DNA of 64,000 nt from an uncultured Gammaproteobacteria bacterium (GTDB lineage Bacteria; Patescibacteriota; Patescibacteriia; Magasanikbacterales; UBA922). The stretch lies in the NCBI GenBank assembly GCA_964394405.1, contig CAYMVY010000003.1, forward strand, positions 29,224 through 93,223, given 5' to 3'. Both the position numbers and the translations under genes were made by a program. Numbering within the stretch: the stretch's first letter is position 1; each line of letters begins with the position of its first letter. Below are positions 2,682 to 49,706 of the stretch, in pieces. The notes under the pieces are model-generated. The model ran no database searches. It was not told the DNA's origin and saw only the letters and a list, made by a program, of their open reading frames with translations.

Positions 2682-3056
2682 TTATCTGACAATCGTGTGC
2701 TTGAATAGTTTCTCTCTGTAATCGACTGCTGCCTCAATTTGTTCGTCTGTGAGTATCGTGCCTTCAGGAACTACAATAAGTTTATCATCATCGTCTTCAA
2801 GTCGATGAATGATTGCAATACACTCTCCTGTAGCTTCTGTCAGAGGTACTTTTTCTCCCAAATAATATCCATCTATTCCTGATCCATCCGGTGCGAGGGT
2901 ATTGGGAACATACCCATAGTTTTCTTTGTACAGCGTTTCTCTATAAGTCGTGCCGTAAGGTTGATCAATTACCAGTGTGACTGTTTTTCCTAGATATTTT
3001 TTACACATTTCTAATGTGATTGATTTGCCATTGATGAGCGGGATTTTAGGTTCCAT
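2682..3056 (-). CDS. Short (124 aa) family-I inorganic-pyrophosphatase-like protein, N-terminally truncated relative to canonical Ppa. Possibly a pseudoenzyme.
   Basis: NYGYVPNTL..DGSGIDG..EDDDDKLIVVP aligns to E. coli Ppa NYGYINHTLSLDGDPVDVL..DEAGEDAKLVAVP. The N-terminal ~55 residues of Ppa are absent and one of the DxDxxD aspartates is replaced (D->S). Confidence 0.5.
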   Translation of the reverse strand: MEPKIPLINGKSITLEMCKKYLGKTVTLVIDQPYGTTYRETLYKENYGYVPNTLAPDGSGIDGYYLGEKVPLTEATGECIAIIHRLEDDDDKLIVVPEGTILTDEQIEAAVDYREKLFKHTIVR

Positions 3057-4169: not shown

Positions 4170-4198
4170 TTGACAATCTATACTTTTTTTACTATACT
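4170..4198 (+). promoter_or_regulatory. Sigma70-like promoter TTGACA-17-TATACT upstream of tRNA-Glu
   Basis: ttgacaatctatacttttttactatact read directly. Spacing is 17. Confidence 0.4.
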
Positions 4199-4224: not shown

Positions 4225-4297
4225 GGCGTCATCGTCTAGTGGTTAGGACACCAGGTTTTCATCCTGGGAACCGGGGTCCGATTCCCCGTGGCGCTAC
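4225..4297 (+). tRNA. tRNA-Glu (anticodon UUC)
   Basis: Cloverleaf folded by hand: acceptor GGCGUCA/UGGCGCU (two G-U pairs), D-arm GUCU..GGAC, anticodon stem CCAGG/CCUGG with loop UUUUCAU, T-arm CGGGG-UCCGAUU-CCCCG. No encoded CCA. Confidence 0.75.
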
Positions 4298-4303
4298 AAC
4301 TAC

Positions 4304-4334
4304 AAACCCAACTCACTTGAGTTGGGTTTTGTTT
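4304..4334 (+). terminator. Rho-independent terminator after tRNA-Glu
   Basis: Hairpin aaacccaactc-actt-gagttgggttt followed by a T-run. Confidence 0.55.
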
Positions 4335-4342
4335 GTATGCCT

Positions 4343-4379
4343 GTAAAATTGAAAGACCCCGCATCCGAAGATGCGGGGC
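4343..4379 (-). terminator. GC-rich hairpin terminator for the minus-strand island gene
   Basis: ccccgcatc-cgaa-gatgcgggg. On the minus strand it is followed by tctttcaatttt. Confidence 0.5.
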
Positions 4380-4409
4380 TTGTCTCCTTTGCAAGAGACT
4401 GTCGGACGA

Positions 4410-5177
4410 TCAGTGGTCGAGAGCCATCCGCTGGATGGCGCTCTCGATCCGCTGACGCTCGTCCGTGTGTGTCGGGAAGAGACTGCGCCAGTGAAGGACG
4501 ATCTTGTCCATCGCCTCCTGCTCGCGCGCCTCCTTGCTCGGTTGGTGGTAGTTGGCACCCACGATCAGCGGCACTCGCAGGTCGAGCATGGTGTAGCTGT
4601 ACTCACTCAGTGCGAGCATGCCGAGGAGGAAGTCGATGTCCTCCATGCCGCCGATCGCGTCACACCTGGCGTCGAACCCACCCATGAGCGGACCGAACGC
4701 CTCGATCCGGACCAGCATCCCAGTGTTACGCGGGTGCCGGTACGATCGTCCCAGGGAGACGATGTTCCCATCCTGTCGCCCCTCGAACGAGGTGCCGACC
4801 ACGCCGACCTTGGGGTCATTGATCGCGGCGTCGAGCATGGCCTCGAGGTGCTGTCTCGTGAACTGCGCCTCGACGCTGATGTTCATGACGAAGCGGAAAC
4901 GATTCCGCTCCCGTACGTTCGCCATGAACACGGCTTTGAAACCGATGTTCAGGGCGTTCGCCCACGAGTAGCCCTCGTGCATCTCGATGAGTTGCACGTG
5001 GCCGGCTTCGATGAACCCTCCGAGGAAGCCTCGGGTAGCGCCTCTGTCCTTGGTGGCGTCCGTAACGACGATGATCTTACCGATCCCCGCGTTACACAGG
5101 CTTGAGACCTGTTTTTGGACGAATTTGTTGTTGTAGGACCGCAGAATCGCGGCCGTCTGGTCCAGTCTGTCACGCAT
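4410..5177 (-). CDS. GT-A fold (family-2-like) glycosyltransferase, encoded in a strongly GC-rich island
   Basis: GT2-like motif order IIVVTDATKD .. GYSWANALNIG .. GGFDARCDAIGGMEDIDFLLG (compare GGFDE..EDxD). The region is visibly GC-rich, with long ORFs on both strands. The antisense ORF 4371..5105 looks like low-complexity junk. Confidence 0.5.
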   Translation of the reverse strand: MRDRLDQTAAILRSYNNKFVQKQVSSLCNAGIGKIIVVTDATKDRGATRGFLGGFIEAGHVQLIEMHEGYSWANALNIGFKAVFMANVRERNRFRFVMNISVEAQFTRQHLEAMLDAAINDPKVGVVGTSFEGRQDGNIVSLGRSYRHPRNTGMLVRIEAFGPLMGGFDARCDAIGGMEDIDFLLGMLALSEYSYTMLDLRVPLIVGANYHQPSKEAREQEAMDKIVLHWRSLFPTHTDERQRIESAIQRMALDH

Positions 5178-5347
5178 GATGTTTAGCGTGTTCCTTTGCC
5201 CCTCTCAAGGGCTTTTGGAAGTAAGATTCCGCGTCCTGTGGTACCCATTTGAGGTATGTTGGGACGATCCACCACACTATGATGGACGTCGAATAATATC
5301 ATATTTTAGCCATTTTGTCAAGTATACTCTTCGATATACGCTGTCTA

Positions 5348-5376
5348 TTGACATATTTCTCAGGCTTTGATATTAT
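5348..5376 (+). promoter_or_regulatory. Sigma70-like promoter TTGACA-17-TATTAT for rplJL
   Basis: ttgacatatttctcaggctttgatattat read directly. Confidence 0.5.
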
Positions 5377-5382
5377 CTCTTC

Positions 5383-5535
5383 ACCATAGACAGTAGCTTC
5401 CCGACAAAGTCGTGGATTAAATACGCTACCGAGGTAAACCAGTTCATCGTCAAGATGGACATCCCGACTAAGTCGGGATAAAGGTCGATATACCGTGTAC
5501 GTCTGTGGTTCAAAAAACCACATTTTTTATTTGTT
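5383..5535 (+). promoter_or_regulatory. Ribosomal protein L10 leader (autoregulatory leader with attenuator hairpin abutting the start codon)
   Basis: ~150-nt structured 5' UTR with hairpins aucccgac-uaa-gucgggau and ugugguu-caaaa-aaccaca followed by UUUUUUAUUUGUU immediately before the rplJ ATG. Position and architecture match the Firmicutes-type L10 leader. Confidence 0.45.
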
Positions 5536-6057
5536 ATGCCAAAAACTAGAGCGCAAAAAGAAGAAGCAATGCAGATTTTGGTCAATACCTTGAAACAGTC
5601 CAAGTCAGTCGTATTTGCGAACTTTCAAGGACTCAAGGTTTCTGAATCAGAAGAACTTCGACGATTGTGCCGAAAAGAAGGTGTTGAGTATGTTGCTGCC
5701 AAGAAAACTCTGGTAGCAAAAGCTCTCAAAGACGCTGGAATTGAAGCAAATCCAAAAAGTTTTGAAGGCGCAGTATCAGTGGTGTTTGGAATTCAGGATG
5801 AAGTTGCTCCTGCACAGATTCTTGCAAAATTCGCGAAAACGCATGAAGCAGTAAAACTTTTCGGCGGAATTCTCGAAGGTGCATTTATCGATGGCAAGAA
5901 AGTAACCGAACTCTCAAAACTTCCAAGCAAACAACAGCTTCTTGGTCAATTGGTGGGAACACTCAACGCTCCGGTATCCGGATTCGTGAATGTACTCGCT
6001 GGAAATCTCCGAGGACTGGTAACCGTACTTGGTGCGATCAAAGATGCAAAAGTTTAA
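5536..6057 (+). CDS. rplJ: 50S ribosomal protein L10
   Basis: MPKTRAQKEEAMQILVNTLKQSKSVVFANFQGLKV.. is typical of L10. 173 aa. Confidence 0.95.
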   Translation: MPKTRAQKEEAMQILVNTLKQSKSVVFANFQGLKVSESEELRRLCRKEGVEYVAAKKTLVAKALKDAGIEANPKSFEGAVSVVFGIQDEVAPAQILAKFAKTHEAVKLFGGILEGAFIDGKKVTELSKLPSKQQLLGQLVGTLNAPVSGFVNVLAGNLRGLVTVLGAIKDAKV

Positions 6058-6535: not shown

Positions 6536-6634
6536 TATATTGGAATCAATCTTTGTACTTCTATTTATTTTGACATTTATTGTATATTGAGAGTACTATA
6601 AAAATACTTTGTGTTATTAATTATTTATCTTTGT

Positions 6635-7636
6635 ATGAGTACTATTGAACAAATTGCCCGAGAATTGGTTTCTTCTGGGAAAGGAATTTTGGCGGCAGAC
6701 GAAAGTGTGGGTACGATGGGTAAACGACTTGCTTCAATTAATGTTGAATCAACTTTGCATAATCGTTCTTTATGGAGAGAGATCATGCTTACCTCAGAAG
6801 GTGTTGAACGCTATATCAGTGGTGTTATTTTGTTTGATGAAACGTTGCGAGAACCGACTCCGGGCGGGCATCGTATTTCTGAGCTCCTTTCAAAAAAAGG
6901 AATTCATTCAGGAGTCAAAGTTGATACAGGCGTTGTCGACATACCACAATTTTCTGGAGATACCTACACTCAGGGACTAGATAATTTAGCAAAGCGTTTT
7001 CTCGAATATCGTGAAATGGGCGCGACGTTTGCCAAGTGGCGCGCGGTGTATTCGGTCGGTGATACTAATCCCTCAGAGGCTGCTCTTGTGGCAAATGCTG
7101 TGGGATTGGCGCAGTATGCGTCGCTTGCACAGCAGGCCGGGTTAGTGCCAATTGTTGAGCCGGAAATACTGGTGTTGGAAGGATCACATTCAATCGAAAA
7201 AAGCAGGGAAGTAACTAAGAACGTTTTGCATACGGTGTTTACACAATTGCGTAATTTTAAGATTAATCTCAAGGGAATATTACTCAAACCAAACATGGTT
7301 CTTCCAGGAAAAGAATCTATAACACAAGCAAGTGCTGACGAAATTGCCAAAGCGACTGTCGAGACACTGCTTGAAGAAGTACCATCAGAAGTTCCTGGGA
7401 TTGTATTTCTTTCAGGGGGGCTTTCACCTGATGACTCAACCATATATCTTGCTACCATGAACAGTGTCTATATGGGAAAGTTGCCGTGGGAGTTGAGTTA
7501 TTCTTATGGACGAGCGCTACAGCAAGAAGCATTGAAGTTATGGTCTGGAAAATCAGAAAATGTTGGCGCATCTCAGAAAGTATTTTTGGAAAGAGCTGAA
7601 AAAGTTTCCCAAGCTCGTTTTGGAAAAATTAGTTAA
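6635..7636 (+). CDS. fba: Fructose-bisphosphate aldolase, class I
   Basis: GKGILAADESVGTMGKRL, ..LLKPNMV..: class I (Schiff-base) FBA signature. The ATG at 6635 lies inside a longer GTG-initiated ORF (6611). Confidence 0.85.
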   Translation: MSTIEQIARELVSSGKGILAADESVGTMGKRLASINVESTLHNRSLWREIMLTSEGVERYISGVILFDETLREPTPGGHRISELLSKKGIHSGVKVDTGVVDIPQFSGDTYTQGLDNLAKRFLEYREMGATFAKWRAVYSVGDTNPSEAALVANAVGLAQYASLAQQAGLVPIVEPEILVLEGSHSIEKSREVTKNVLHTVFTQLRNFKINLKGILLKPNMVLPGKESITQASADEIAKATVETLLEEVPSEVPGIVFLSGGLSPDDSTIYLATMNSVYMGKLPWELSYSYGRALQQEALKLWSGKSENVGASQKVFLERAEKVSQARFGKIS

Positions 7637-7641
7637 TCAAT

Positions 7642-8598
7642 ATGTTTCAAAAAGTCACTACGCTTACTGAGTTTATTATTGAAGAGCAGCGGAAGTTCCC
7701 TCAGGCACAGGGCAATTTCACGCTTCTCATGACTCAGATAGAAAATGCTACAAAAATTATTGCAAGTCATGTCAAAAAAACAGGCCTGGTCGACATTATT
7801 GGCGCAACAGGCGAGACCAATGTTCATAAAGAACAGGTACAAAAGCTAGATATATTCAGTAATGAACTTTTGGTTGATACTCTGGTTCAGAGTGGGGAAG
7901 TTTGTATGATCGCTTCAGAGGAGATGGAACATGAAATACACGTTGAGAAAAATTCTGGTGAGTATACTGTATTTTTTGATCCTTTGGATGGTTCTTCAAA
8001 TATCGATGTCAATGTCAGTATCGGAACTATCTTTTCTATTTACAGAAAGAGTGAGCATATATTACAAAAAGGAAGGGAACAGGTGGCGGCTGGATATATC
8101 GTATATGGTCCAAGTGTCATGTTTGTCTATACCTCGGGGCATGGAGTGAACGGGTTCACTCTTGATCCTTCAATAGGTAGTTTTTTACTTTCTCATCCAA
8201 ACATACAGATTCCTGAGACCGGTGAATTCTATTCGATTAATGAGGCGTATTATGATTTATTTGATTCGCGGCTACAGACATATCTCAGGGCTATCAAAGT
8301 GGGTGAAAAACCACGTGCATTGCGCTATGTAGGCTCTATGGTCGCAGATGTTCATAGAACTCTCCTCAAAGGAGGTATATTTGCTAATCCTGCAAATATC
8401 AAAAAACCGAATGGCAAACTCCGGCTTATGTACGAGGTGAATCCACTTTCATTTATTATCGAACAGGCGGGCGGTATGTCCTATAGCCGAAGCTCAAGCC
8501 CACTCGACATTGCGCCAAGTAGTCTACACGAGACTGTACCAATTGTATTGGGGAGCAGGAGAGATGTGGAAGAATATGTACGCCAAACACTTCAGTGA
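7642..8598 (+). CDS. fbp: Fructose-1,6-bisphosphatase class 1
   Basis: TEFIIEEQRKFPQAQGNFTLLM, FDPLDGSSNIDVNVSIGTIFSIY, GEFYSINE motifs of FBPase I. Confidence 0.85.
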   Translation: MFQKVTTLTEFIIEEQRKFPQAQGNFTLLMTQIENATKIIASHVKKTGLVDIIGATGETNVHKEQVQKLDIFSNELLVDTLVQSGEVCMIASEEMEHEIHVEKNSGEYTVFFDPLDGSSNIDVNVSIGTIFSIYRKSEHILQKGREQVAAGYIVYGPSVMFVYTSGHGVNGFTLDPSIGSFLLSHPNIQIPETGEFYSINEAYYDLFDSRLQTYLRAIKVGEKPRALRYVGSMVADVHRTLLKGGIFANPANIKKPNGKLRLMYEVNPLSFIIEQAGGMSYSRSSSPLDIAPSSLHETVPIVLGSRRDVEEYVRQTLQ

Positions 8599-23720: not shown

Positions 23721-26700
23721 ATGCCTGGTAAAAGACGAACTGTACAAGCAACACGCAATCCATCTCCTTCTCGAGGTGGTCGTCTTCGTGCCTGGCATAA
23801 GTATGTTGCGTGGCAGGAATTACTCAATTCATATCAGCTTTCTAAGAAGACGCAAAAGAATTCTGACACTCATACTGATCGTTTTTATCTAGAAAAACAA
23901 ATTGTTTGGCATTATTTCAAAAATTTCTTTTTATTTCCTGTATGGTTTTTCAAATTATTAACCCCGTCATATTTTAAGGGTCCGGTAAACGTATGGACAA
24001 ATCTTCATACGATTTTACGAAGTCATGAGTTTCGTCCACTCCGGATGGCAGTTGTGTCTCAGGCTCTTTTTCTATTTATTATTATTAAATTGGGAATTTT
24101 TGTATTCTATTATCAATCAACCCCTGCCTACACCGCAACCTACGGATGGATCCAGACTAACTGGATAGGGGGTGTTTCTACGACTGCTGCAGCAACACAC
24201 ACCAGTGATCGAACAGGTTGGACACAGTATACGAGCTCAACTCTGGTGAGTGTCTATGCTTCTCCTGGTAATGTGGTTATTGCAACATCGAGTTACACGA
24301 CGACTGATGATGCAACACTTACTACTGATGGGCTAGCGAGTGGGGGAGGATTTGGAAATGGTGCCACCTCGACTGTAGAGGTTAGTGGTGGGGATGTGAC
24401 TCTTAGTGTTGCATCAGCTGGAGGAGAAGTGCTTGATTGGGATTCAGCCCCCCTCACTCTTCCCGCTACTATTTCGGGCACTGATGATGGGAATGGGGTC
24501 ATGGTGACCGATGGTGATGATGCTTTTTATATTCTTCGAGGAGGTGGAACTACTGGTTTTTATAAATTTGTACCTTCCACTGCGACCACGAGCACACTTA
24601 CTTCAGTTCCGAGTGCAATTCCACCTAATGGAGGAGGTGGTTCGTTAGTACTTTCTGGTAATTATATCTACGTATATTCTGGCGGTAATAGTGGTCCAAA
24701 ATTTTATGCGTACTCAATTGCAGATGATTCATGGACCACTCTCACGAATCCACCCAGCGCTCCCTATGGGGATGGTATTGGTAGTAGTATGGCTGCAGAT
24801 GCTAGTGGTAATATTTATTTGGCAGCTGGAGGTGCTACTACTAATTTTTATAAATACACTGTGTCGACTGCTCCAAGTGGTTCGTGGAGCAGTGCATATA
24901 CTTTTGGGAGTAGTGTGCGAAGAGGTTCTCGTGCAATTTATGATAGCGTGAATAATGATATTTTGGTGCTTTCTGGTAATAATGGTCACAGTGTATTTAA
25001 ATTTGACATAGATTCTTCGACAGTCACCTCGTATGCTGGTGCTAACAATGATCCTGGCTTTACGACTGGTGCGACGATGGCTGTTGATACTACGAATAAT
25101 AGAGTCTATGCACTCAGTGGGCAGAGTTATGGGTACATGGAAATTCTCAATCTTTCGAATGGTACATGGAATTCTCGTCAATCTTCATCTACTCCTGTAG
25201 GGTCAGATGCAGGTGCCTATATGATTAAGAAAGAGGGTGAGAAGCGAATTTATACCTCATTTGGGGGAACTAGTTTTTACTACTTTAGTACTGATGGTGC
25301 TGGTTCGTGGCAGATGACCTCTAATACTAGCCCTGTCCCTGCTTCGATGGGGCAGGGTGCAACCCTGATTCGACATGGTAATGACGAGATCTATGCCTTG
25401 CTTGGTGGTGGAAGCTCGGCAATTTATCGTTTTGCGATTAATTCAGGCACGCAATATAACACGTCTGGAAATTTGATTTCAGCAACTATTGATCTCAAAT
25501 TTGCGTCTTCAACCTATATCTCTTGGTCAGCCACTACGCCTGCAAACACTGGTTCAAATGCAGTGAAATTTCAGGTTGCTGCGAATACTGATAACTCGAC
25601 GTGGAATTATGTAGGTCCTGATGGTACAGCGAGCACGTATTTTACCACTTCAAATACGGCATTACCTGATTCGCTGAATGGAAAGCGCTATTATAGGTAC
25701 AAAGCGTACCTCACAACCTCTAATTCTTCTTATACGCCTACATTGCATAGTGTTACTTTCACGTATGATAGTTATCGTACTTCTGGTGGAATAGCTTCTT
25801 CACCATTTAATACTCTTGATGGTACCAATGTTCCTGCATCTATTGCGTGGACACAAACTGTCCCAACGGGTACGAGTATTAAATTTCAAGTTCGTACTAG
25901 TGCTGATAATAATACGTGGACTTCGTGGATGGGTCCTGATGGGACTGAGGGTACCTATTTTACTGACAATACTGGGGCGCAGGATATGCCTGCGGCACTG
26001 AGCGATGGGACAAATGATAATTGGATTCAGTATCAGGCATATTTTGTGAGTGATGGTACGGCGACACCAGTACTCGCTGACGCTACCTTCACCTATGTAG
26101 TGAATGCTCCTCCTGAAATTTCTATCACAAGTTCTACTCTTTCGGTTGCTTCTGATGGGGTCTTGACTGTAGATTATACTGTTCGAGATATTGACACAGA
26201 CACTGGAGCTACGACCGGATATGTTGCAGTATCACTTCAGTATTGCACTGCAAATTGTTCGAGTTCTGGATCAGAAACCTGGGCAACTGCTGCTGCAGGA
26301 AGTTTGACTGGTAATTTTGGTTCGAGTGTTACGGTAAACGCCCTCTCACCAACCGAATATACGAGTCATTCTCTTACCTGGACGCCAACTAGTTCTTATA
26401 ATAATCAGTATAATGGAAGTACTTTTAAGATCCGTCTTGTTGCTGATGATTCTGAAGCTGCAAATAATACGGGGAATGATGAATCAAACGTTTTTGTTCT
26501 TGATACTACTGACCCTGTGGTTTCGTTAGTAATTGATGGAAGAACGTCTACTACTACATTGACCTTTAGTGTCACTGAAGATACTCAGCTAGGAATGCAG
26601 ATGAAGCTATCAAATAATAGTAGTCTTGCTTCTGATGGATTGAATGCTGATTCGGGAACTTGGATTCCCTATGCCTCCACCTCGACATGGAATTTGGGAA

Positions 26701-29700
26701 GTGGGGGAACTACGGTGTATTACCAAATCAAGGATAGGTACGGTAATGTCTCTGCAGGTAATGCTATTTCTTCGGGTCAGACTCCTCAAATTCCAGGAAA
26801 TTTATTTTTCAAAGATATTTCCAATGCAGAGACGAGTGAATGGCGAGAATTTATTGCTTGGCAAATTATTGACGAGCCGACTCCTGGATTTTCGAAATAT
26901 ACTATTTACCGCTCAACTGATGGTAGTACCTATGAGGAACTTGCAACTCAGGTATCACGTGTCATTAATTATTATCTTGATACTGATATTGATACTGGTA
27001 CTACGTATTACTATAAAGTCACTTCACATGATACTAGTGGAAATGTTTCGAGTTACTCGACGGTGGTGTCTGATGATCCCAATGGTACGGGAGGTACTGA
27101 TGTGGCGTCTCCTAGTATTACTAATGTTGCAACCAGTACGATTACACCTGATTCTGTGACTATTACCTGGGATACAGATGAGGTTTCTGATTCGTATGTG
27201 GATTATATTACGGTAGCAGGTGGTGATTTTAGTGGAGCTAATACGGTCGGTATTACTACCATGCGAGATACTGAAGATGGGCTCGGAGAGCACAGTGTAG
27301 TACTTACTGACCTGACCCCTGAAACTACATATTATTTCCGTGTACGGTCAATAGACCCGGATGGAAATCAAGGTACAGGTACTCAGGAGCCGAATGGGTA
27401 CTCGTTTACTACGTTGTCTGGACCCACTATTTCAAATGTGATAACCTCGGAGATTCTTAATACTGAGGCAACAATTACTTGGACTACCAATCAAGAGAGT
27501 GATTCATATGTTGTTTTTTCGACTTCTTCGAGTTTCACTGCATCTACTACGGTCGGCTCACCTACCAGTGTGACATCACATTCGGTCACCTTACCATCAC
27601 TCACTCAAAATACAACTTATTTTTATTATGTGGTATCTGGAATTTCGGTTGATAAAAATACTGTTGAGGGTCAACATGAGTATTATAGTTTTACCACTAC
27701 TGCAGACTTGACTGCTCCAACTATTACTTTTGACGTAGATGATGACGTCACTGTTTCTGACACCTCAATCATCGTCACTTTTGTGACCAATGAGCCTGCG
27801 ACTTCGAGTCTTCAGTATGGTACGAGCGGTGCTTATGGATCTTCCCAGATAAATAATAATTTGAATACCGATCATCGATACTCGCTTACAGACCTACTCC
27901 CGGGCACGCTCTATTATTTCAGTCTACAGGTCTCAGATGAAGATGAAAATGTATCAAGTGCTACCCAGTTTAATGCCACCACTACGAATAGTGCTGATGT
28001 GACTGCGCCGACTATATCATCAGTTACGACTACTGTTGTGACCGATGACCAGGCTCTTATTGAGTGGTCGACTGATGAAGGTGCAACAGGAAGAGTTTGG
28101 TATGGAACTACTTCAGGAATATATGGATCGTCCAGTAATCTATCTTCGTCATACAATCGGAGTCATGCAATAACATTATCAAGTTTGACTACTTCGACTG
28201 CATATTATTATATCGTTGCTTCGGTTGATTCCAGTGGAAATTCTGCAACTTCAAGTGAATATGGATTTACTACTCTTGAGACGCTTACTCCTGAAAGTGA
28301 AGTAATTTTGCGTGAAGAAGAAGCGCGGGCTGAAGGAGAGGATGAGGGAAGGGCAGCTGCTTCTTCGGGTGGTGGCGGTGGTGGCGGAGGCTCTTCCTCT
28401 GACAAGACGGCCCCGATTATTTCGGGAGCCACTGTTACTGATATTACGAGTCAGTCTGCCACCTTTACTTGGAATACTGATGAGGCAGGGGATAGTGTGG
28501 TTGAATTTGGAGAAACCAATGCTTATGGAAGAGGTGGATTGATTTTTGAGAATACAAAAAATCATAAAATAGTTCTTACTGACTTAGATCCTCTCACTAA
28601 GTATTTTTATCGATTGAGTTCTGCAGATGCAGCGGGTAATCGTAGTACTTTCTTTGAAAGTTCGTTTAGCACTCTTTCGCTTTTAGAAGACGCAAATACT
28701 ATTGCAAGTACTACTGCATCTGATGATCTGGAAACAGAGGAGGTACAGGAATCATTCCTTGCTTCTCTTGAAAAAGTGACTGATTTTATACGTACCATGG
28801 CGACTCGAGTAAGTGTTGGAGTTCTTGAGTCATCACTATTGAAACAGTCTGATCTAGTACTCGAACTTTCTTCGCTTCTCCCTCTTCCTGCTATTGGTGG
28901 ACAGCCAGTGGTTGAAACAGGTTCTACCTATGCTACGGTTTCTTGGACTACTGATAAGGAATCTAATTCATTGGTTTCTTTTGCTTCTGATGCGGACTAC
29001 CTTCTTTCCAAGCAGTACACACAGACTGTTGGTGATTCTGAATTGATGACCACACAGCATTCAGTTGAAATTAGGGGATTACAGCCATCGACTCTGTATC
29101 ACTATCGTGTGATTTCGCGAACTCAGACTGGTGCTGAGACGAGATCTCAGGATTTTGTGTTCCAGACCAAGGCTGAGAGTACAGAAATCGAGACGCATAA
29201 GATTGATATTATATCTTCTGAAGAGGCTGTATTTTCATGGAATACAACTATCCCGACTGAATCTATTGTATCGTATATTCCGTATCGCAATGGTGTCCTT
29301 GATATTGACGCAAAACAGTTTGTAAAAGATAAAAGTCTTACTACAAAACATTCGTTGCATGTCAAAAACCTCGAAGCAGGTGTACTCTATGATATTGAAA
29401 TTTCTGGTATTGATTCAGGCGGTAATACAGTCAGTAAGACAATCAAAGGTTTTTCAACTAATGATGAGGATCTTCCTCCAATTATTTCTCAGGTCACCAC
29501 TGATTCAGCGATTCTTCCTGGAGGAAATGATAAAATTCAGGTAATCATTTCTTGGATTACCAATGAATTTTCTACAACCAAAGTGTATTACCTTAAAGGA
29601 TTCTCGGGTGAGAATACTGAGTTCAAAGATAGTACCCCGCTTGATTCTAATTACACGAAAAAACATATTGCAGTTATTGCTAATTTTGAGCCTGGTTTTG

Positions 29701-29858
29701 TGTATCAGTTTCAAGTCGAGAGCACTGATTCTTCTGGTAATACCACTCGTTCAAAGACATACACTCTTTTGACCCCACGAAAAGAAGAATCAGTCTTCCA
29801 GATTATTACAGGTAATTTTGAAAGTATCTTCTCATGGGTAGGAAAACTGAGGAGTTAG
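23721..29858 (+). CDS. Giant (2045 aa) single-pass surface protein with an N-terminal cytoplasmic basic segment and TM helix. The extracellular part has Kelch/beta-propeller-like repeats and at least eight fibronectin-III-like modules.
   Basis: TM AVVSQALFLFIIIKLGIFVFYY. Repeated GG..FYKF/YRF blades. Fn3-like modules each start (T/S)ITW(D/T)T(D/N).. and end ..YY(F/Y)(R/Y)V.S.D..GN (for example VTITWDTDEVSDSYVDY..TTYYFRVRSIDPDGNQG). Gly8 linker at aa ~1545. Confidence 0.8.
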   Translation: MPGKRRTVQATRNPSPSRGGRLRAWHKYVAWQELLNSYQLSKKTQKNSDTHTDRFYLEKQIVWHYFKNFFLFPVWFFKLLTPSYFKGPVNVWTNLHTILRSHEFRPLRMAVVSQALFLFIIIKLGIFVFYYQSTPAYTATYGWIQTNWIGGVSTTAAATHTSDRTGWTQYTSSTLVSVYASPGNVVIATSSYTTTDDATLTTDGLASGGGFGNGATSTVEVSGGDVTLSVASAGGEVLDWDSAPLTLPATISGTDDGNGVMVTDGDDAFYILRGGGTTGFYKFVPSTATTSTLTSVPSAIPPNGGGGSLVLSGNYIYVYSGGNSGPKFYAYSIADDSWTTLTNPPSAPYGDGIGSSMAADASGNIYLAAGGATTNFYKYTVSTAPSGSWSSAYTFGSSVRRGSRAIYDSVNNDILVLSGNNGHSVFKFDIDSSTVTSYAGANNDPGFTTGATMAVDTTNNRVYALSGQSYGYMEILNLSNGTWNSRQSSSTPVGSDAGAYMIKKEGEKRIYTSFGGTSFYYFSTDGAGSWQMTSNTSPVPASMGQGATLIRHGNDEIYALLGGGSSAIYRFAINSGTQYNTSGNLISATIDLKFASSTYISWSATTPANTGSNAVKFQVAANTDNSTWNYVGPDGTASTYFTTSNTALPDSLNGKRYYRYKAYLTTSNSSYTPTLHSVTFTYDSYRTSGGIASSPFNTLDGTNVPASIAWTQTVPTGTSIKFQVRTSADNNTWTSWMGPDGTEGTYFTDNTGAQDMPAALSDGTNDNWIQYQAYFVSDGTATPVLADATFTYVVNAPPEISITSSTLSVASDGVLTVDYTVRDIDTDTGATTGYVAVSLQYCTANCSSSGSETWATAAAGSLTGNFGSSVTVNALSPTEYTSHSLTWTPTSSYNNQYNGSTFKIRLVADDSEAANNTGNDESNVFVLDTTDPVVSLVIDGRTSTTTLTFSVTEDTQLGMQMKLSNNSSLASDGLNADSGTWIPYASTSTWNLGSGGTTVYYQIKDRYGNVSAGNAISSGQTPQIPGNLFFKDISNAETSEWREFIAWQIIDEPTPGFSKYTIYRSTDGSTYEELATQVSRVINYYLDTDIDTGTTYYYKVTSHDTSGNVSSYSTVVSDDPNGTGGTDVASPSITNVATSTITPDSVTITWDTDEVSDSYVDYITVAGGDFSGANTVGITTMRDTEDGLGEHSVVLTDLTPETTYYFRVRSIDPDGNQGTGTQEPNGYSFTTLSGPTISNVITSEILNTEATITWTTNQESDSYVVFSTSSSFTASTTVGSPTSVTSHSVTLPSLTQNTTYFYYVVSGISVDKNTVEGQHEYYSFTTTADLTAPTITFDVDDDVTVSDTSIIVTFVTNEPATSSLQYGTSGAYGSSQINNNLNTDHRYSLTDLLPGTLYYFSLQVSDEDENVSSATQFNATTTNSADVTAPTISSVTTTVVTDDQALIEWSTDEGATGRVWYGTTSGIYGSSSNLSSSYNRSHAITLSSLTTSTAYYYIVASVDSSGNSATSSEYGFTTLETLTPESEVILREEEARAEGEDEGRAAASSGGGGGGGGSSSDKTAPIISGATVTDITSQSATFTWNTDEAGDSVVEFGETNAYGRGGLIFENTKNHKIVLTDLDPLTKYFYRLSSADAAGNRSTFFESSFSTLSLLEDANTIASTTASDDLETEEVQESFLASLEKVTDFIRTMATRVSVGVLESSLLKQSDLVLELSSLLPLPAIGGQPVVETGSTYATVSWTTDKESNSLVSFASDADYLLSKQYTQTVGDSELMTTQHSVEIRGLQPSTLYHYRVISRTQTGAETRSQDFVFQTKAESTEIETHKIDIISSEEAVFSWNTTIPTESIVSYIPYRNGVLDIDAKQFVKDKSLTTKHSLHVKNLEAGVLYDIEISGIDSGGNTVSKTIKGFSTNDEDLPPIISQVTTDSAILPGGNDKIQVIISWITNEFSTTKVYYLKGFSGENTEFKDSTPLDSNYTKKHIAVIANFEPGFVYQFQVESTDSSGNTTRSKTYTLLTPRKEESVFQIITGNFESIFSWVGKLRS

Positions 29859-45663: not shown

Positions 45664-45912
45664 ATGTATTATGTTTATCTGTTGAAAAGTTTCAAAGATA
45701 ATGGATTGTATATAGGATATACCCATGATTTACGTCGGAGATTTCAAGAACATACTGAAGGCGAGGTTGATTCTACAATGCATCGAAGGCCGTTAATACT
45801 TCTCTATTACGAAGCTTATGAGATATGTGAACGAGCACAAGAAAGAGAAAGAAAGTTGAAAAAATTTGGTTCCGCGTATACTGCACTTTTAAAACGTTTG
45901 AAAATTAAGTAA
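45664..45912 (+). CDS. Standalone GIY-YIG nuclease superfamily protein (UPF0213/YhbQ-like, 82 aa)
   Basis: YVYLLKSFKDNGLYIGYTHDLRRRFQEH..G...T.....P..LLYYE matches the GIY..YIG..R..H..E core. AT-rich (host-like) composition. The stop lies 5 nt before tRNA-Trp. Confidence 0.75.
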   Translation: MYYVYLLKSFKDNGLYIGYTHDLRRRFQEHTEGEVDSTMHRRPLILLYYEAYEICERAQERERKLKKFGSAYTALLKRLKIK

Positions 45913-45916
45913 ACAT

Positions 45917-45987
45917 GGGCGCGTGGTGAAATGGTATCACTAAGGTCTCCAAAACCTTCGTCGTAGGTTCGATTCCTACCGCGCCTG
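45917..45987 (+). tRNA. tRNA-Trp (anticodon CCA)
   Basis: Acceptor GGGCGCG/CGCGCCU (G1-U72), D GUGA/UCAC, anticodon stem AAGGU/ACCUU with loop CUCCAAA, T-arm GUAGG-UUCGAUU-CCUAC. Confidence 0.85.
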
Positions 45988-45994
45988 CTAAAAC

Positions 45995-46025
45995 AAAAAA
46001 TCACCATATACTGGTGATTTTTTGT
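45995..46025 (+). terminator. Rho-independent terminator after tRNA-Trp
   Basis: aaaaaatcacca-tatac-tggtgattttttg. Confidence 0.6.
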
Positions 46026-46115
46026 TGCTCGCCGACGGGTGTCCTGCGAGCAGGATGCTATTTCGTCGGCGGTGGTCTAGCGCGTGTTCCCACGGCTTCT
46101 CCTTGTGTTGTTGTC

Positions 46116-46439
46116 TCAGAAGTCGATGACCTCGACGTACTCCGGGATCCCGTTCTTCCAGCGGGGATTGAATTCTGGCTGGTTGAAGGTCGAGCGGTAG
46201 AGCCTGCTCAGTTCCCCTGATCCGTCGAAGCGCATCTGGTCCGGTGTCACGACGACGAGGTTGTCCTTGTTGCCGAAGCCGATCTTCAATGCGGCAGTGT
46301 ACGCCTCGTCCATCGTCAGCGGCCAGTTGGCGCGGACGTACTCCTCCATCGTGGTTGCCTTGTAGCCTTCGCTACCCGCTACGATTTTCATCTTGACTTC
46401 TCCGCCCTTGCGGACGGTGATGAGGCCTTGGGTTGCCAT
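46116..46439 (-). CDS. Hypothetical 107-aa protein in GC-rich island 2, with a strong AGGAGG Shine-Dalgarno
   Basis: MATQGLITVRKGGEVKMKIVAGSEGYKATTMEEYVRANWPLTMDEAYTAALKIGFGNKDNLVVVTPDQMRFDGSGELSRLYRSTFNQPEFNPRWKNGIPEYVEVIDF has no family I can name. caggaggaaagcATG on the minus strand. Confidence 0.5.
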   Translation of the reverse strand: MATQGLITVRKGGEVKMKIVAGSEGYKATTMEEYVRANWPLTMDEAYTAALKIGFGNKDNLVVVTPDQMRFDGSGELSRLYRSTFNQPEFNPRWKNGIPEYVEVIDF

Positions 46440-46488
46440 GCTTTCCTCCTGTTGCATTTGGCCGGATACATATACTAAAATTTAAAGA

Positions 46489-48005: not shown

Positions 48006-48151
48006 TTAAGAGATTTTCATCTTGACTTTTAAGATACCGTACGGTACTCTGAGTCGTACTTTTTGTTGATTCTATTCTTTTGGGTTTACCTGAACTCAGA
48101 GGAGCTGGATCAAGAGATGATCGTAGCACAACTCAAAAGGAGAGCCCCCTC

Positions 48152-48622
48152 ATGCTGAATTCGATTCCTCTTTTCCTGATTCTGTTCATGACCTTCAACT
48201 GCTCCTCGATCCCTCGCAGTGAGTCGGACGGATGGGAGAATTACCTCGAACTCGTCCAGCGGGTCAAGTATCTCGAGTACGAGCACTACTTCACCACTCT
48301 CGGTCCCATGGCCGAGAAATACTTCCGTGATCCCAACTTTGGTTCTGGCATTTATGCCTACAAGGATGGTGAACTCCTCAAGCTCGGACCGAGTGATGAT
48401 CCCAATGAGATCGTGACGATCGCTGGACATCCGATCAATGGCTGGACGTACTGCGTCTATCGCAGTTTCTATTGGCGTAGAGCGATTGATGGGAGCTTCA
48501 AGCTGATCTCCCAAGAGATCATCGAAGAGGGGATGCCCGAGACGGGCACGTGCAATCCTGCGAACAGGTTTCGCAATCGGGACGACCGACGGTCCACCCC
48601 GAAGATCCGGATCCTGGATTAG
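48152..48622 (+). CDS. Hypothetical secreted/lipoprotein (156 aa) in GC-rich island 3, with an AAAGGAGAG Shine-Dalgarno
   Basis: Signal MLNSIPLFLILFMTFNCSS (Cys after a hydrophobic core). Mature part has no recognised domain. GC-rich, with ORFs open on both strands. Confidence 0.5.
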   Translation: MLNSIPLFLILFMTFNCSSIPRSESDGWENYLELVQRVKYLEYEHYFTTLGPMAEKYFRDPNFGSGIYAYKDGELLKLGPSDDPNEIVTIAGHPINGWTYCVYRSFYWRRAIDGSFKLISQEIIEEGMPETGTCNPANRFRNRDDRRSTPKIRILD

Positions 48623-48692
48623 TAGGACAATACACAACCCCGACGCCTCGTATCGACTGGTCCACGATGCGAATCGCGTCGGGAACAGTCTA

Positions 48693-48722
48693 CCCCGTCT
48701 TTCGCGAAAGACGGGGTTTTTG
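48693..48722 (+). terminator. GC-rich perfect palindromic terminator hairpin at the island 3 boundary
   Basis: ccccgtcttt-cgcg-aaagacgggg followed by ttttt. Confidence 0.6.
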
Positions 48723-48731
48723 TTCGAAGAA

Positions 48732-49706
48732 TTAATTTTTTTGACTAAACCAATTTTTAAAAATGTCAGAGATTTTTTTTCGTGGAGGTTGCTGTGGTCG
48801 AGTGATTTCGATTGTTTCAGGAGGCATCTTTTCTAAATCCAGTGCAGGTTTTGAAGGTATGCGGAGTAGTCCTGGGATTTGCTCTCTTCGTTCTTGGTAC
48901 ACTTGAGTAATTGTTGTTCTAATTATTGGCAGAACGTGTAATTTTAGGGATGTAAGTATGATTTTTTCGAATCCCGATTGTTGAAATTCCCATTCATTCT
49001 CAATATTTTTTTTGATGCTAGAATCCATGTTTTTTATTTCCGTATCTAATTCTATTTTTTTATGCTCTATAATTTGTTTATACAATTTTTCGTAATTGAT
49101 AAAGAATTTATCAAATGCGTTTGTATTTACCAGATTAAATTCAGGATTTTCTTCGACCAGTAGTCCATCTGTCCGTTGTTCCAATTTTACTTTTGCAGCA
49201 GTATATTCATATAGAGTTTCTGAAACTGCCTCATTTATCAGAAGCATTGTGGGGCTTCCTACATCTGTAATTTCTTTCATTCTTTTTTCATTCTCGTATT
49301 GCATTTCATTAAAAAAAGAGTTTATTTCTTTTTTTAAACCTACTGCTTTTTCGTATTGTTCATCATGCTTGATTTCTTGCGTATTCTTTCTCCTCCCACT
49401 TCTGCTTTTTCTTTTCAATATTTCAGCCGTAATTTCGTCGTTGATCGTGCCTATACTATCTACTAGTTCATCGCTCAGGAGTTTAAGAATAGCATCTTTT
49501 TCATTTTCAAAATCCGATTCATATCTTCCGTGAAACGCATCATTCCGATTTGTTATTATTTTATCGATTTCTGTTTTGTAGCGTTTTTGTATTTCTGGAT
49601 CAAGTTGCTCAGAACCTTGCAATAATGATACCCGTATTTGTTCTAGGCCATGTTTTTTTTGCATTTTTCTATCCATGCGATATACCTCCATTGTATTTTC
49701 ATTCAT
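48732..49706 (-). CDS. Hypothetical 324-aa charged/coiled-coil protein
   Basis: Long K/E-rich helical sequence without recognisable enzymatic motifs. AT-rich host-like composition. Confidence 0.5.
   Translation of the reverse strand: MNENTMEVYRMDRKMQKKHGLEQIRVSLLQGSEQLDPEIQKRYKTEIDKIITNRNDAFHGRYESDFENEKDAILKLLSDELVDSIGTINDEITAEILKRKSRSGRRKNTQEIKHDEQYEKAVGLKKEINSFFNEMQYENEKRMKEITDVGSPTMLLINEAVSETLYEYTAAKVKLEQRTDGLLVEENPEFNLVNTNAFDKFFINYEKLYKQIIEHKKIELDTEIKNMDSSIKKNIENEWEFQQSGFEKIILTSLKLHVLPIIRTTITQVYQERREQIPGLLRIPSKPALDLEKMPPETIEITRPQQPPRKKISDIFKNWFSQKN

Follow-up and report, generated by a model that had tools for sequence, protein, structure and literature searches.

The amelioration model for acquired genomic islands is said to go back to work by Lawrence and Ochman in 1997, and a segment of deviating composition is routinely taken as a sign of recent horizontal gene transfer (HGT). 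GC-based island callers are also in use for the Candidate Phyla Radiation (CPR; Patescibacteria) (PMC12455944). The 64,000-nt stretch of DNA analysed here ('the window') holds what looks like a textbook case, a glycosyltransferase (GT) gene in a GC-rich segment beside tRNA-Glu. Like tRNA-associated islands, the GT unit is of atypical composition, comprises a single accessory-type gene, adjoins a tRNA gene in this window and finds its closest outside relatives in genomes that it matches in composition. Unlike such islands, it has no integrase, att repeat or conserved tRNA adjacency, is common to diverged relatives at one site and shows no amelioration. We consider it probable (roughly 0.6) that it is an old, self-contained unit whose GC-richness has been kept, rather than a recent tRNA-targeted insertion. 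This old syntenic resident would then be a counter-example to both amelioration-based dating and GC-based island callers.

Other described systems offer points of comparison as well. The encoded protein has the same fold as GT-A family-2 (GT2) enzymes (PF00535), among them SpsA (1h7q/1qg8), TarP (6h2n), K4CP (2z86) and a Leptospira enzyme (6p61). Its mRNA starts with a leader that recalls guanidine-II (mini-ykkC), a tandem-hairpin translational riboswitch with ACGR tetraloops that is associated with guanidine carboxylase and transporter genes. Like guanidine-II, the leader has two similar small tandem hairpins in the 5′ untranslated region (UTR), with conserved loop nucleotides, GC-rich covarying stems and hairpin 2 next to the Shine-Dalgarno (SD) sequence. 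Unlike guanidine-II with its tetraloops, it has loops of 7 nt (U-Y-R-A-A-U-G between C-C and G-G-G), each hairpin carries an outer helix plus an internal loop, and the associated genes encode a glycosyltransferase and a SemiSWEET protein. Finally, a 2003 study by Katz and Burge reportedly described that bacterial coding regions are under selection for mRNA secondary structure. As in that effect, native GT sequences fold better than synonymous, dinucleotide-preserving shuffles; in contrast to that case, ten of the 12 GT orthologs reach z-scores of −2.4 to −4.9, an effect far larger than in 14 controls (mean −0.2), and it comes with a GC content 20 points above that of the host genome.

An old resident between tRNA-Glu and rplJ

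Across ~4340-5290, the GC profile climbs from ~0.40 to 0.60-0.64, the largest GC spike of the window, and the segment 4340-5290 has ~61% GC in a genome of 41% GC. The GT open reading frame (ORF) has a GC content of 0.61 (0.61, 0.40 and 0.83 at first, second and third codon positions). Third-position GC content (GC3) averages 0.36 over the 52 other window ORFs, placing the GT gene at z ~5. An initial annotation of the sequence had rightly stressed this contrast with the AT-rich flanks (0.61 vs 0.41, a gap well above ~5%). Its description as a single-gene GC island holds for the strongest spike, but smaller GC-rich single genes also occur at 46020-46460 and 48126-48750. One convincing gene lies in the GC-rich segment, and the GT unit is self-contained, with its own promoter, ~109-nt leader, ORF and terminator:

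5293-5321, minus strand: sigma-70-type promoter of the GT unit (TTGACA, 17 nt, TG-n-TATTAT), in AT-rich DNA
5178-5286, minus strand: 5′ leader of ~109 nt with a tandem-hairpin RNA motif (covariance-model match 5183-5273)
4410-5177, minus strand: GT gene, 255 aa, predicted GT-A fold (GT2-like), from the ORF list, Pfam, AlphaFold2 and Foldseek
4346-4379, minus strand: intrinsic terminator of the GT gene (hairpin 4356-4379, with a 10-bp GC-rich stem and UUCG loop, then a T-rich tail), from the terminator scan
4371-5105, plus strand: antisense ORF of 244 aa, judged a composition artefact

For comparison, genome loci of relatives are referred to by L numbers. L005 is Ca. Magasanikbacteria UBA922, L007 a second diverged metagenome-assembled genome (MAG), and L026-L029 are four independent assemblies that are 96-97.5% identical to the window. 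The GT promoter scored 11 of 12 positions plus an extended −10 element in the promoter scan, and the same TTGACAAAA.GGC...TATGCTATAAT-like promoter is found in L005, L007, L006, L008, L030, L058 and L059. The GC-rich hairpin terminator that had been proposed to close the minus-strand ORF was recovered by the terminator scan at 4356-4379 with its T-run, and a GC-rich hairpin with a T-rich tail likewise lies 3′ of the GT gene in L005 and L026, where the tails align. The added claim that it is unlike host terminators does not hold, as the window contains other GC-rich hairpin terminators, e.g. at 48695-48725.

The window is co-linear with L005 from dnaE through tsaD, tRNA-Glu, GT, rplJ and rplL to the gene for a 758-aa protein and onward, and with L007 over a shorter part, from GT through rplJ-rplL to the 758-aa gene. 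Nucleotide identity in these syntenic stretches is 66-81%, and the GT promoter, leader and T-rich terminator tail align among the syntenic copies. In all relatives recovered (L026-L029, L005 and L007) the gene is found at this site, without presence/absence polymorphism among them. Its position is constant while its exact neighbours differ: in L005, tRNA-Glu and GT lie 1.2 kb apart with two ordinary AT-rich genes in between, and in L007 ~700 bp lie between the GT promoter and the rplJ leader. Because the site is shared with relatives whose flanks are synonymously saturated (synonymous divergence, dS, above 1.5) and the composition is stationary (see below), the gene is best seen as an old resident, contrary to the recency implied by the initial annotation. 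Its place between tRNA-Glu and rplJ would predate the split from UBA922.

An assembly chimera is ruled out, since L026-L029 are co-linear through the GC-rich segment and the longest of them, L026, corresponds to window 4297-5466, reaching from the tRNA-Glu 3′ end to within the rplJ leader and covering both GC transitions. The two diverged MAGs, L005 and L007, show the same arrangement, so the island is free of a chimeric join.

The surroundings of the unit comprise the following features, all outside it:

4225-4297, plus strand: tRNA-Glu(UUC), from ARAGORN (Rfam tRNA 58.6 bits)
4170-4198: promoter of tRNA-Glu, from the promoter scan
4304-4329: terminator hairpin of tRNA-Glu, from the terminator scan
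5348-5376, plus strand: divergent promoter of rplJ, from the promoter scan
5366-5538, plus strand: L10 leader (Rfam RF00557)

A tRNA-Glu with a terminator of its own thus precedes the GC-rich stretch, as initially described. The idea that the gene was inserted there by tRNA targeting fared worse. Integrase and recombinase genes are absent from the island, which consists of one GT-fold ORF flanked by tsaD, tRNA-Glu and rplJ. An 18-nt pattern from the tRNA-Glu 3′ end (up to 3 mismatches) occurs once in the window, so there is no att copy, and no direct repeats flanking the segment turned up in a scan of 4300-5330. A tRNA lies directly beside the GT gene in only 2 of ~23 loci scanned. Carriage by phages, plasmids or viruses was rejected, as no GT homolog was found in INPHARED phages, PLSDB plasmids or IMG/VR contigs. 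Displacement of rplKA by the unit, as had been suggested, is likewise unsupported: rplK, rplA and nusG are absent from both the window and L005, rplJ has its own promoter and L10 leader, and nothing ties the GT gene to the missing genes. This leader matches RF00557 at 40.6 bits against a gathering score of 44 (E 1e-4) and is kept in L005 and L007; the L10 and L7/L12 proteins encoded downstream were confirmed by Pfam.

A composition that does not ameliorate

Between the window and L005, the flanking genes show proportions of synonymous differences (pS) of 0.65-0.78 and a dS of 1.5 to above 2.3, i.e. they are saturated, at a GC3 of 0.28-0.38. The proportion of nonsynonymous differences (pN) of the GT gene is 0.16, like that of its neighbours, with a ratio of nonsynonymous to synonymous divergence (dN/dS) of ~0.2. 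At the same site, its GC3 is 0.84 in the window, 0.89 in L005 and 0.93 in L007. A two-state decay model that sets the equilibrium GC3 at ~0.33 and allows each lineage 0.75 or more substitutions per silent site predicts that a GT gene that entered at a GC3 of ~0.9 would by now have fallen to ~0.4-0.5.

The pattern of substitutions is informative in the same regard. At 4-fold sites, window and L005 copies are identical in 44 cases and differ by G<->C in 31, by A<->T in 2 and between strong and weak bases (S<->W) in 12. Polarised changes between the window and a 97% relative amount to 10 GC-to-AT and 7 AT-to-GC, a split that has a probability of 4e-4 under the ~10:1 ratio of neutral decay. In the syntenic pair L010/L012, the GT gene has a GC3 of 0.79 in both loci beside an epimerase gene with a GC3 of 0.41-0.43 and a pS of 0.79, and the GT gene of the syntenic pair L008/L030 likewise keeps a high GC3. 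The GT composition is thus stationary rather than ameliorating, and is actively maintained both at this locus and across the family.

GC excess and mRNA folding across the family

In a comparison of 30 non-redundant Patescibacteria loci, each with at least three neighbouring ORFs, the GT GC3 exceeded the neighbour mean in 29 (median excess +0.16, Wilcoxon p 1.3e-8) and that of every neighbour in 18, and was uncorrelated with host GC3 (rho 0.14). Extremes are L059, whose GT protein is only 30% identical to the query and whose GT gene reaches 0.59 GC against surroundings of 0.36, and L041, where GC3 is 0.96. According to a meta-profile of 13 loci, the GC excess extends from the leader/ORF to ~50 nt past the stop codon, and the promoter region is more AT-rich than background.

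Folding was measured as the minimum free energy (MFE) of the coding sequence against a null in which third bases were permuted among codons with the same amino acid, first two bases and following base, thereby keeping the protein, codon boxes and all dinucleotides. The z-scores of 12 GT orthologs were −4.9, −3.7, −4.4, −3.0, −2.6, −2.4, −4.5, −3.9, −0.6, −2.6, −3.9 and −0.8. Their mean of −3.1 compares with −0.2 for 14 controls (Mann-Whitney p 1.4e-4), namely ten window genes (−1.3 to +0.8) and four genes of a 62% GC genome (−2.8 to +2.9). In 6/6 cases, folding of the sense strand was more extreme than that of the antisense strand.

Since the GC excess is transcript-bounded and folding goes beyond that of synonymous shuffles, selection at synonymous sites for an unusually strongly folded mRNA may be what keeps the GT gene GC-rich, a proposal to which we give slightly less than even odds. 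If true, the family would be an unusually clean natural system for such selection, with dozens of orthologs in hosts ranging from 29% to 65% GC.

A CPR glycosyltransferase with a GT-A fold

The Pfam family PF00535 matches the 255-aa protein at E 2.8e-4 and 21.3 bits, under the gathering score of 23.3. A database search returned 78 homologs of 230-400 aa, nearly all unnamed, of which one (P0058) has a precomputed PF00535 match. Where names are given, they are those of Patescibacteria groups (Liptonbacteria, Moraniibacteriota) or plain 'bacterium', and the genome loci add Magasanikbacteria, Paceibacteria, Doudnabacteria, Falkowbacteria, Uhrbacteria and Saccharibacteria; the family is seen here almost only in Patescibacteria genomes. 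NCBIfam and PDB sequence searches with the window protein yielded no family and no useful match, and a lookup of its exact sequence found no record.

An AlphaFold2 model computed from the family alignment reached a predicted local distance difference test score (pLDDT) of 94.4 and a predicted template modelling score (pTM) of 0.90, and Foldseek matched it to 276 PDB chains at E<=1e-3. The top hits are GT-A enzymes, namely the Leptospira glycosyltransferase 6p61, TarP, BcsA, SpsA and K4CP; for 6p61, TarP, SpsA and K4CP, values are E 2e-10 to 1e-8, probability 1.0 and template modelling scores of 0.6-0.78. The GT-A/GT2-like motif order read from the sequence in the initial annotation is borne out, with VVTDAT, ALN and GGFDAR..EDID all lying in the GT ORF.

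Like GT2 enzymes, the family has an N-terminal 'RSYNN' strand, a 'VVTD..D.GAT' nucleotide-binding loop and 'YSWSNALN' in this order, followed by a C-terminal 'GG(F)D..CD..GGMEDIDF' whose ED pair takes the place of the GT2 catalytic base. G176-G177-M178-E179-D180 is invariant or nearly so among 35 sequences, and the acidic pair E179-D180 would by analogy be the catalytic-base region. Unlike typical GT2 enzymes, the window protein falls below the Pfam gathering score, is soluble, has 255 aa and no membrane or acceptor domain, and shows SVE where DxD is expected. Specifically, the predicted strand 96-100 is followed by S101-V102-E103, with S101 and E103 invariant and V102 nearly so, rather than by a canonical DxD; this tripeptide would be a putative counterpart of DxD in position. 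A GT2-like identity is therefore supported at the level of the predicted fold but not by formal Pfam membership, and a counterpart of the DxD feature is at most putative.

Genomic context is again similar to that of GT2 enzymes: recurrent neighbours are genes for NAD-dependent sugar-nucleotide epimerase/dehydratases (L001, L003, L010, L012, L066 and L067) and a Bac_transf sugar-phosphate transferase (L008 and L030). The SemiSWEET gene of L040, described below, is a further suggestive neighbour. Given the GT-A fold and the epimerase/dehydratase and Bac_transf neighbours, the predicted enzyme probably moves a sugar from a nucleotide-sugar into a cell-surface glycan.

A tandem-hairpin 5′ leader

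In syntenic and non-syntenic genomes alike, including the high-GC clade introduced below, the GT gene is preceded by the conserved promoter and then two similar hairpins of the form NNCC-U-YRAAU-G-GGNN. In the window, these are:

5232-5266, minus strand: hairpin 1, with outer helix CGUCC/GGACG, a symmetric internal loop, inner helix ACC/GGU and loop UCAAAUG (MFE fold)
5198-5212, minus strand: hairpin 2, GCCCU-UGAGA-GGGGC

Among 18 aligned sequences, the inner helix of hairpin 1 is 93% paired and that of hairpin 2 98.9% paired, each with 3 covarying pairs; for hairpin 2, a second alignment of 30 sequences agrees. Both inner helices together have 96.1% of cells paired in the 18-sequence alignment against 84.4 +/- 1.3 in shuffled ones, a value reached by 0 of 500 shuffles, and 22 double-change cells against 5.4 expected, while slid controls are at most 56% paired. 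RNAalifold independently gives the same two hairpins. A covariance model (R1) matches the window leader at 57.3 bits, and nearly all of its matches lie directly upstream of GT orthologs; two weak ones (E>0.02) are on the opposite strand at the same places. The one exception is L040 (588-1053), where copy 1 precedes a SemiSWEET gene (MtN3_slv; 677-946, 89 aa, PF03083 at E 1e-8) and copy 2 the GT gene, which suggests a small sugar-related regulon.

Hairpin 2 of the window is flanked by UUCC (5217-5220) upstream and the SD sequence GGAA (5191-5194) downstream. Across the family, the SD sequence follows hairpin 2 after 0-5 nt, and a conserved UUCC/CUCC complementary to it precedes the hairpin. An outer helix formed by this putative anti-SD and the SD sequence may therefore enclose hairpin 2; it is predicted in L033 and partially in L067, and is absent from the window's own MFE fold. 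Because hairpin 2 abuts the SD sequence, the leader would probably control initiation of GT translation. This makes it a candidate translational regulator, for which binding of a protein or sensing of temperature is just as possible as a riboswitch function. Complementarity between the hairpin loops (kissing of UCAA with UUGA) is present in some sequences but inconsistent.

Rfam 15 gave no match at E<=1 for the window leader or the leaders of 10 other loci, and no paper in the literature collection searched mentions SemiSWEET along with a riboswitch. The leader is thus a candidate for a so far undescribed regulatory RNA that would link a conserved, unannotated GT to sugar transport in CPR bacteria, whose surface biology and regulation are almost unknown.

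As a side observation, leader positions 5260-5269 (GAUCGUCCCA, on the 5′ side of hairpin 1) are perfectly complementary over 10 nt to 4744-4753, 506 nt downstream, which encodes the conserved GRS of LGRSYRHPRNT; for a single sequence, a match of this kind is within chance expectation.

Origin and competing explanations

In a neighbour-joining tree, the syntenic copies from AT-rich hosts (window/L026 and L005/L007) form a clade that is sister to L006/L066/L067. The latter come from genomes of 61-65% GC with a synteny of their own (Sua5, epimerase, GT, RF1), and their GT genes match the genome composition; by GroEL, these hosts are nearest to Uhrbacteria, including bins of 58-60% GC. At the amino acid level, the window GT is 73-74% identical to those of L005/L007 and 68-71% to the high-GC clade, and a more distant version (43-46% identity) occurs in other Magasanikbacteria and Uhrbacteria (L023 and L018). 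As the nearest non-syntenic relatives reside in 61-65% GC genomes whose composition the gene matches, a lateral high-GC origin is plausible. Long ago, the common ancestor of the window lineage and UBA922 probably acquired the gene from a high-GC CPR lineage resembling Uhrbacteria. Such a within-CPR event agrees with the report that HGT is common in Patescibacteria and mostly within the phylum (PMC12455944). Of the horizontal acquisition from a high-GC donor proposed initially, the foreign composition and the 61-65% GC relatives therefore stand, but a recent, tRNA-targeted entry does not. The best hits do lie in close relatives with AT-rich genomes, which comes halfway to a condition named as grounds for rejecting an acquisition, yet the gene is GC-rich in those relatives, too.

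With regard to names, the deposited taxonomy is unreliable for L006, L007, L008 and L021, MAGs entitled 'uncultured Gammaproteobacteria bacterium ... binchicken' that evidently belong to Patescibacteria. L007 shares its gene order with Magasanikbacteria UBA922, and L006 has a GroEL that comes closest to those of Uhrbacteria and other Patescibacteria.

Several explanations compete with that of an old unit kept GC-rich. A recent single-gene insertion at tRNA-Glu, with the composition of the donor still un-ameliorated, would account for the 20-point GC jump adjoining the tRNA and for closest outside relatives in 61-65% GC genomes that the gene matches, and it would fit the frequent, mostly within-phylum HGT reported for Patescibacteria (PMC12455944). 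We nevertheless regard it as very improbable in view of the shared site in L005 and L007 between synonymously saturated flanks, the single clade of syntenic copies, the lack of integrase and att repeat, the 1.2 kb and two genes between tRNA and GT in L005, and the stationary composition. A less drastic variant, unlikely but more credible than the former, leaves composition free of selection: an anciently transferred gene would have ameliorated neutrally but very slowly, or its alleles would have been replaced repeatedly from a GC-rich gene pool. Frequent lateral spread from high-GC CPR lineages would then lie behind the excess seen throughout the family. The wide variation of the excess, near zero in a few loci as if at different stages of decay, can be read this way, as can the small gap between identities within the window clade (73-74%) and to the high-GC clade (68-71%) and the existence of other GC-rich islets in these genomes. 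Against this stand 4-fold sites that are close to saturation with G<->C dominant, balanced recent changes, a GT GC3 uncorrelated with that of the host and three independent syntenic pairs that keep a high GC3 beside saturated AT-rich neighbours, and the folding excess is left unexplained. Moreover, nucleotide identity to the high-GC clade is ~71%, at which homologous replacement is unlikely.

Balanced S<->W flux with silent-site G/C kept is also the expected signature of GC-biased gene conversion (gBGC) at a local recombination hotspot, which would shape composition without function, and the spread of the family among co-occurring CPR lineages offers the chance to recombine. However, the excess is sharply bounded by transcription start and terminator in 13 loci, borders that a DNA-level conversion tract would ignore, and stronger folding of the sense than of the antisense strand points to RNA. 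A GC3 of 0.9 vs 0.33 is also far beyond reported bacterial gBGC effects, and we deem this explanation improbable; like slow or refreshed amelioration, it fits the borders and folding data less well than selection on mRNA structure does. Hardly credible at all is dual coding, in which an overlapping plus-strand gene at 4371-5105 would constrain the silent sites of the GT gene. The initial annotation had correctly seen long stop-free ORFs on both strands, and long antisense ORFs over the GT gene occur in the window, L005, L003, L006, L008 and L035, with 147 TTA, CTA and TCA codons vs 229 by a crude expectation. Yet the plus-strand ORF is aligned codon by codon with the GT gene on the opposite strand, so that only TTA, CTA and TCA in the sense frame, codons that are rare at high GC3, can give it stops; such ORFs are a by-product to be expected anyway once GC3 exceeds 0.8. 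The same frame contains 8-15 stops in the lower-GC family members L013, L037, L038, L046 and L055, the 244-aa product has no Pfam match, and identity is 56% for the antisense vs 73% for the sense product. As a real gene, the antisense ORF was rejected on account of these stops and the missing domain match.

Maintenance of GC-richness in an old unit, our preferred explanation, has to contend with points of its own. The saturated dS values are lower bounds only, the expected amelioration comes from a simple two-state model, and allelic replacement by unsampled GC-rich alleles is, strictly speaking, still conceivable. The horizontal origin stands on weak grounds, i.e. a tree and a rate argument. 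The family members L055, L016 and L046 have near-host GC. As to folding, RNAalifold on 10 GT coding sequences revealed no net covariation (term +3.5 kcal/mol), two of the 12 GT genes (L023 and L003) have no folding excess, L006 and L067 fall within the control range under a plain codon shuffle, and only 24-28 shuffles were made per gene. The excess may thus be lineage-specific or a by-product of another constraint. A more general cause of GC-rich single genes may also be at work, as the GC-rich gene at 46116-46439 stays GC-rich in relatives and has no clear folding excess of its own (z −1.45).

It is possible, if doubtful, that the unit combines a new class of tandem-hairpin cis-regulatory RNA with a gene whose silent sites have been under long-term selection for a GC-rich, heavily paired mRNA throughout the superphylum. 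The leader may then be a riboswitch for a sugar or nucleotide-sugar that controls the CPR-specific GT and SemiSWEET, and the folding of the mRNA could have a regulatory or stabilising function or a second, non-coding one. Were this true, a composition mimicking fresh HGT would be a functional trait.

Further observations in the window and related loci

Of the smaller GC-rich islets, that at 46020-46460 comes right after tRNA-Trp (45917-45988), with a DEAD-box helicase gene oriented divergently from it; its ORF (46116-46439, minus strand) encodes 107 aa without a Pfam domain, at a GC content of 0.58 and a GC3 of 0.82. The gene is GC-rich in the syntenic loci L069 (62% identity) and L073 (75%) as well, with a GC3 of 0.67 vs 0.22-0.39 for its neighbours, and L069 has another GC-rich gene at 7870-8565 (GC3 0.80). 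The islet at 48126-48750 contains a plus-strand ORF (48152-48622; GC 0.53, GC3 0.65) whose 156-aa product lacks a Pfam domain and has a hydrophobic N-terminus resembling a signal peptide; the islet has its own GC-rich terminator at ~48695-48725.

Gene content along the syntenic stretches varies at other points, too. Between rplL and the 758-aa gene, the window carries genes for a class I fructose-bisphosphate aldolase (PF00274, E 8e-123) and a fructose-1,6-bisphosphatase (FBPase) at 6611-8598, a pair missing at that position in L005 and L007; with a host-like GC3 of 0.33-0.37, this indel is invisible to GC scans. A 124-aa inorganic-pyrophosphatase-like ORF (2682-3056) between dnaE and tsaD has no counterpart there in L005. 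Small GIY-YIG genes adjoin tRNAs in the window (45664-45912, tRNA-Trp) and L005 (12036-12329, tRNA-Glu), and more are scattered in the related loci L003, L069 and L071; they may constitute a mobile or homing-type family tied to tRNA loci. Finally, a 2045-aa ORF at 23721-29858 has a second-position GC content of 0.50, unusually high in comparison with other genes.

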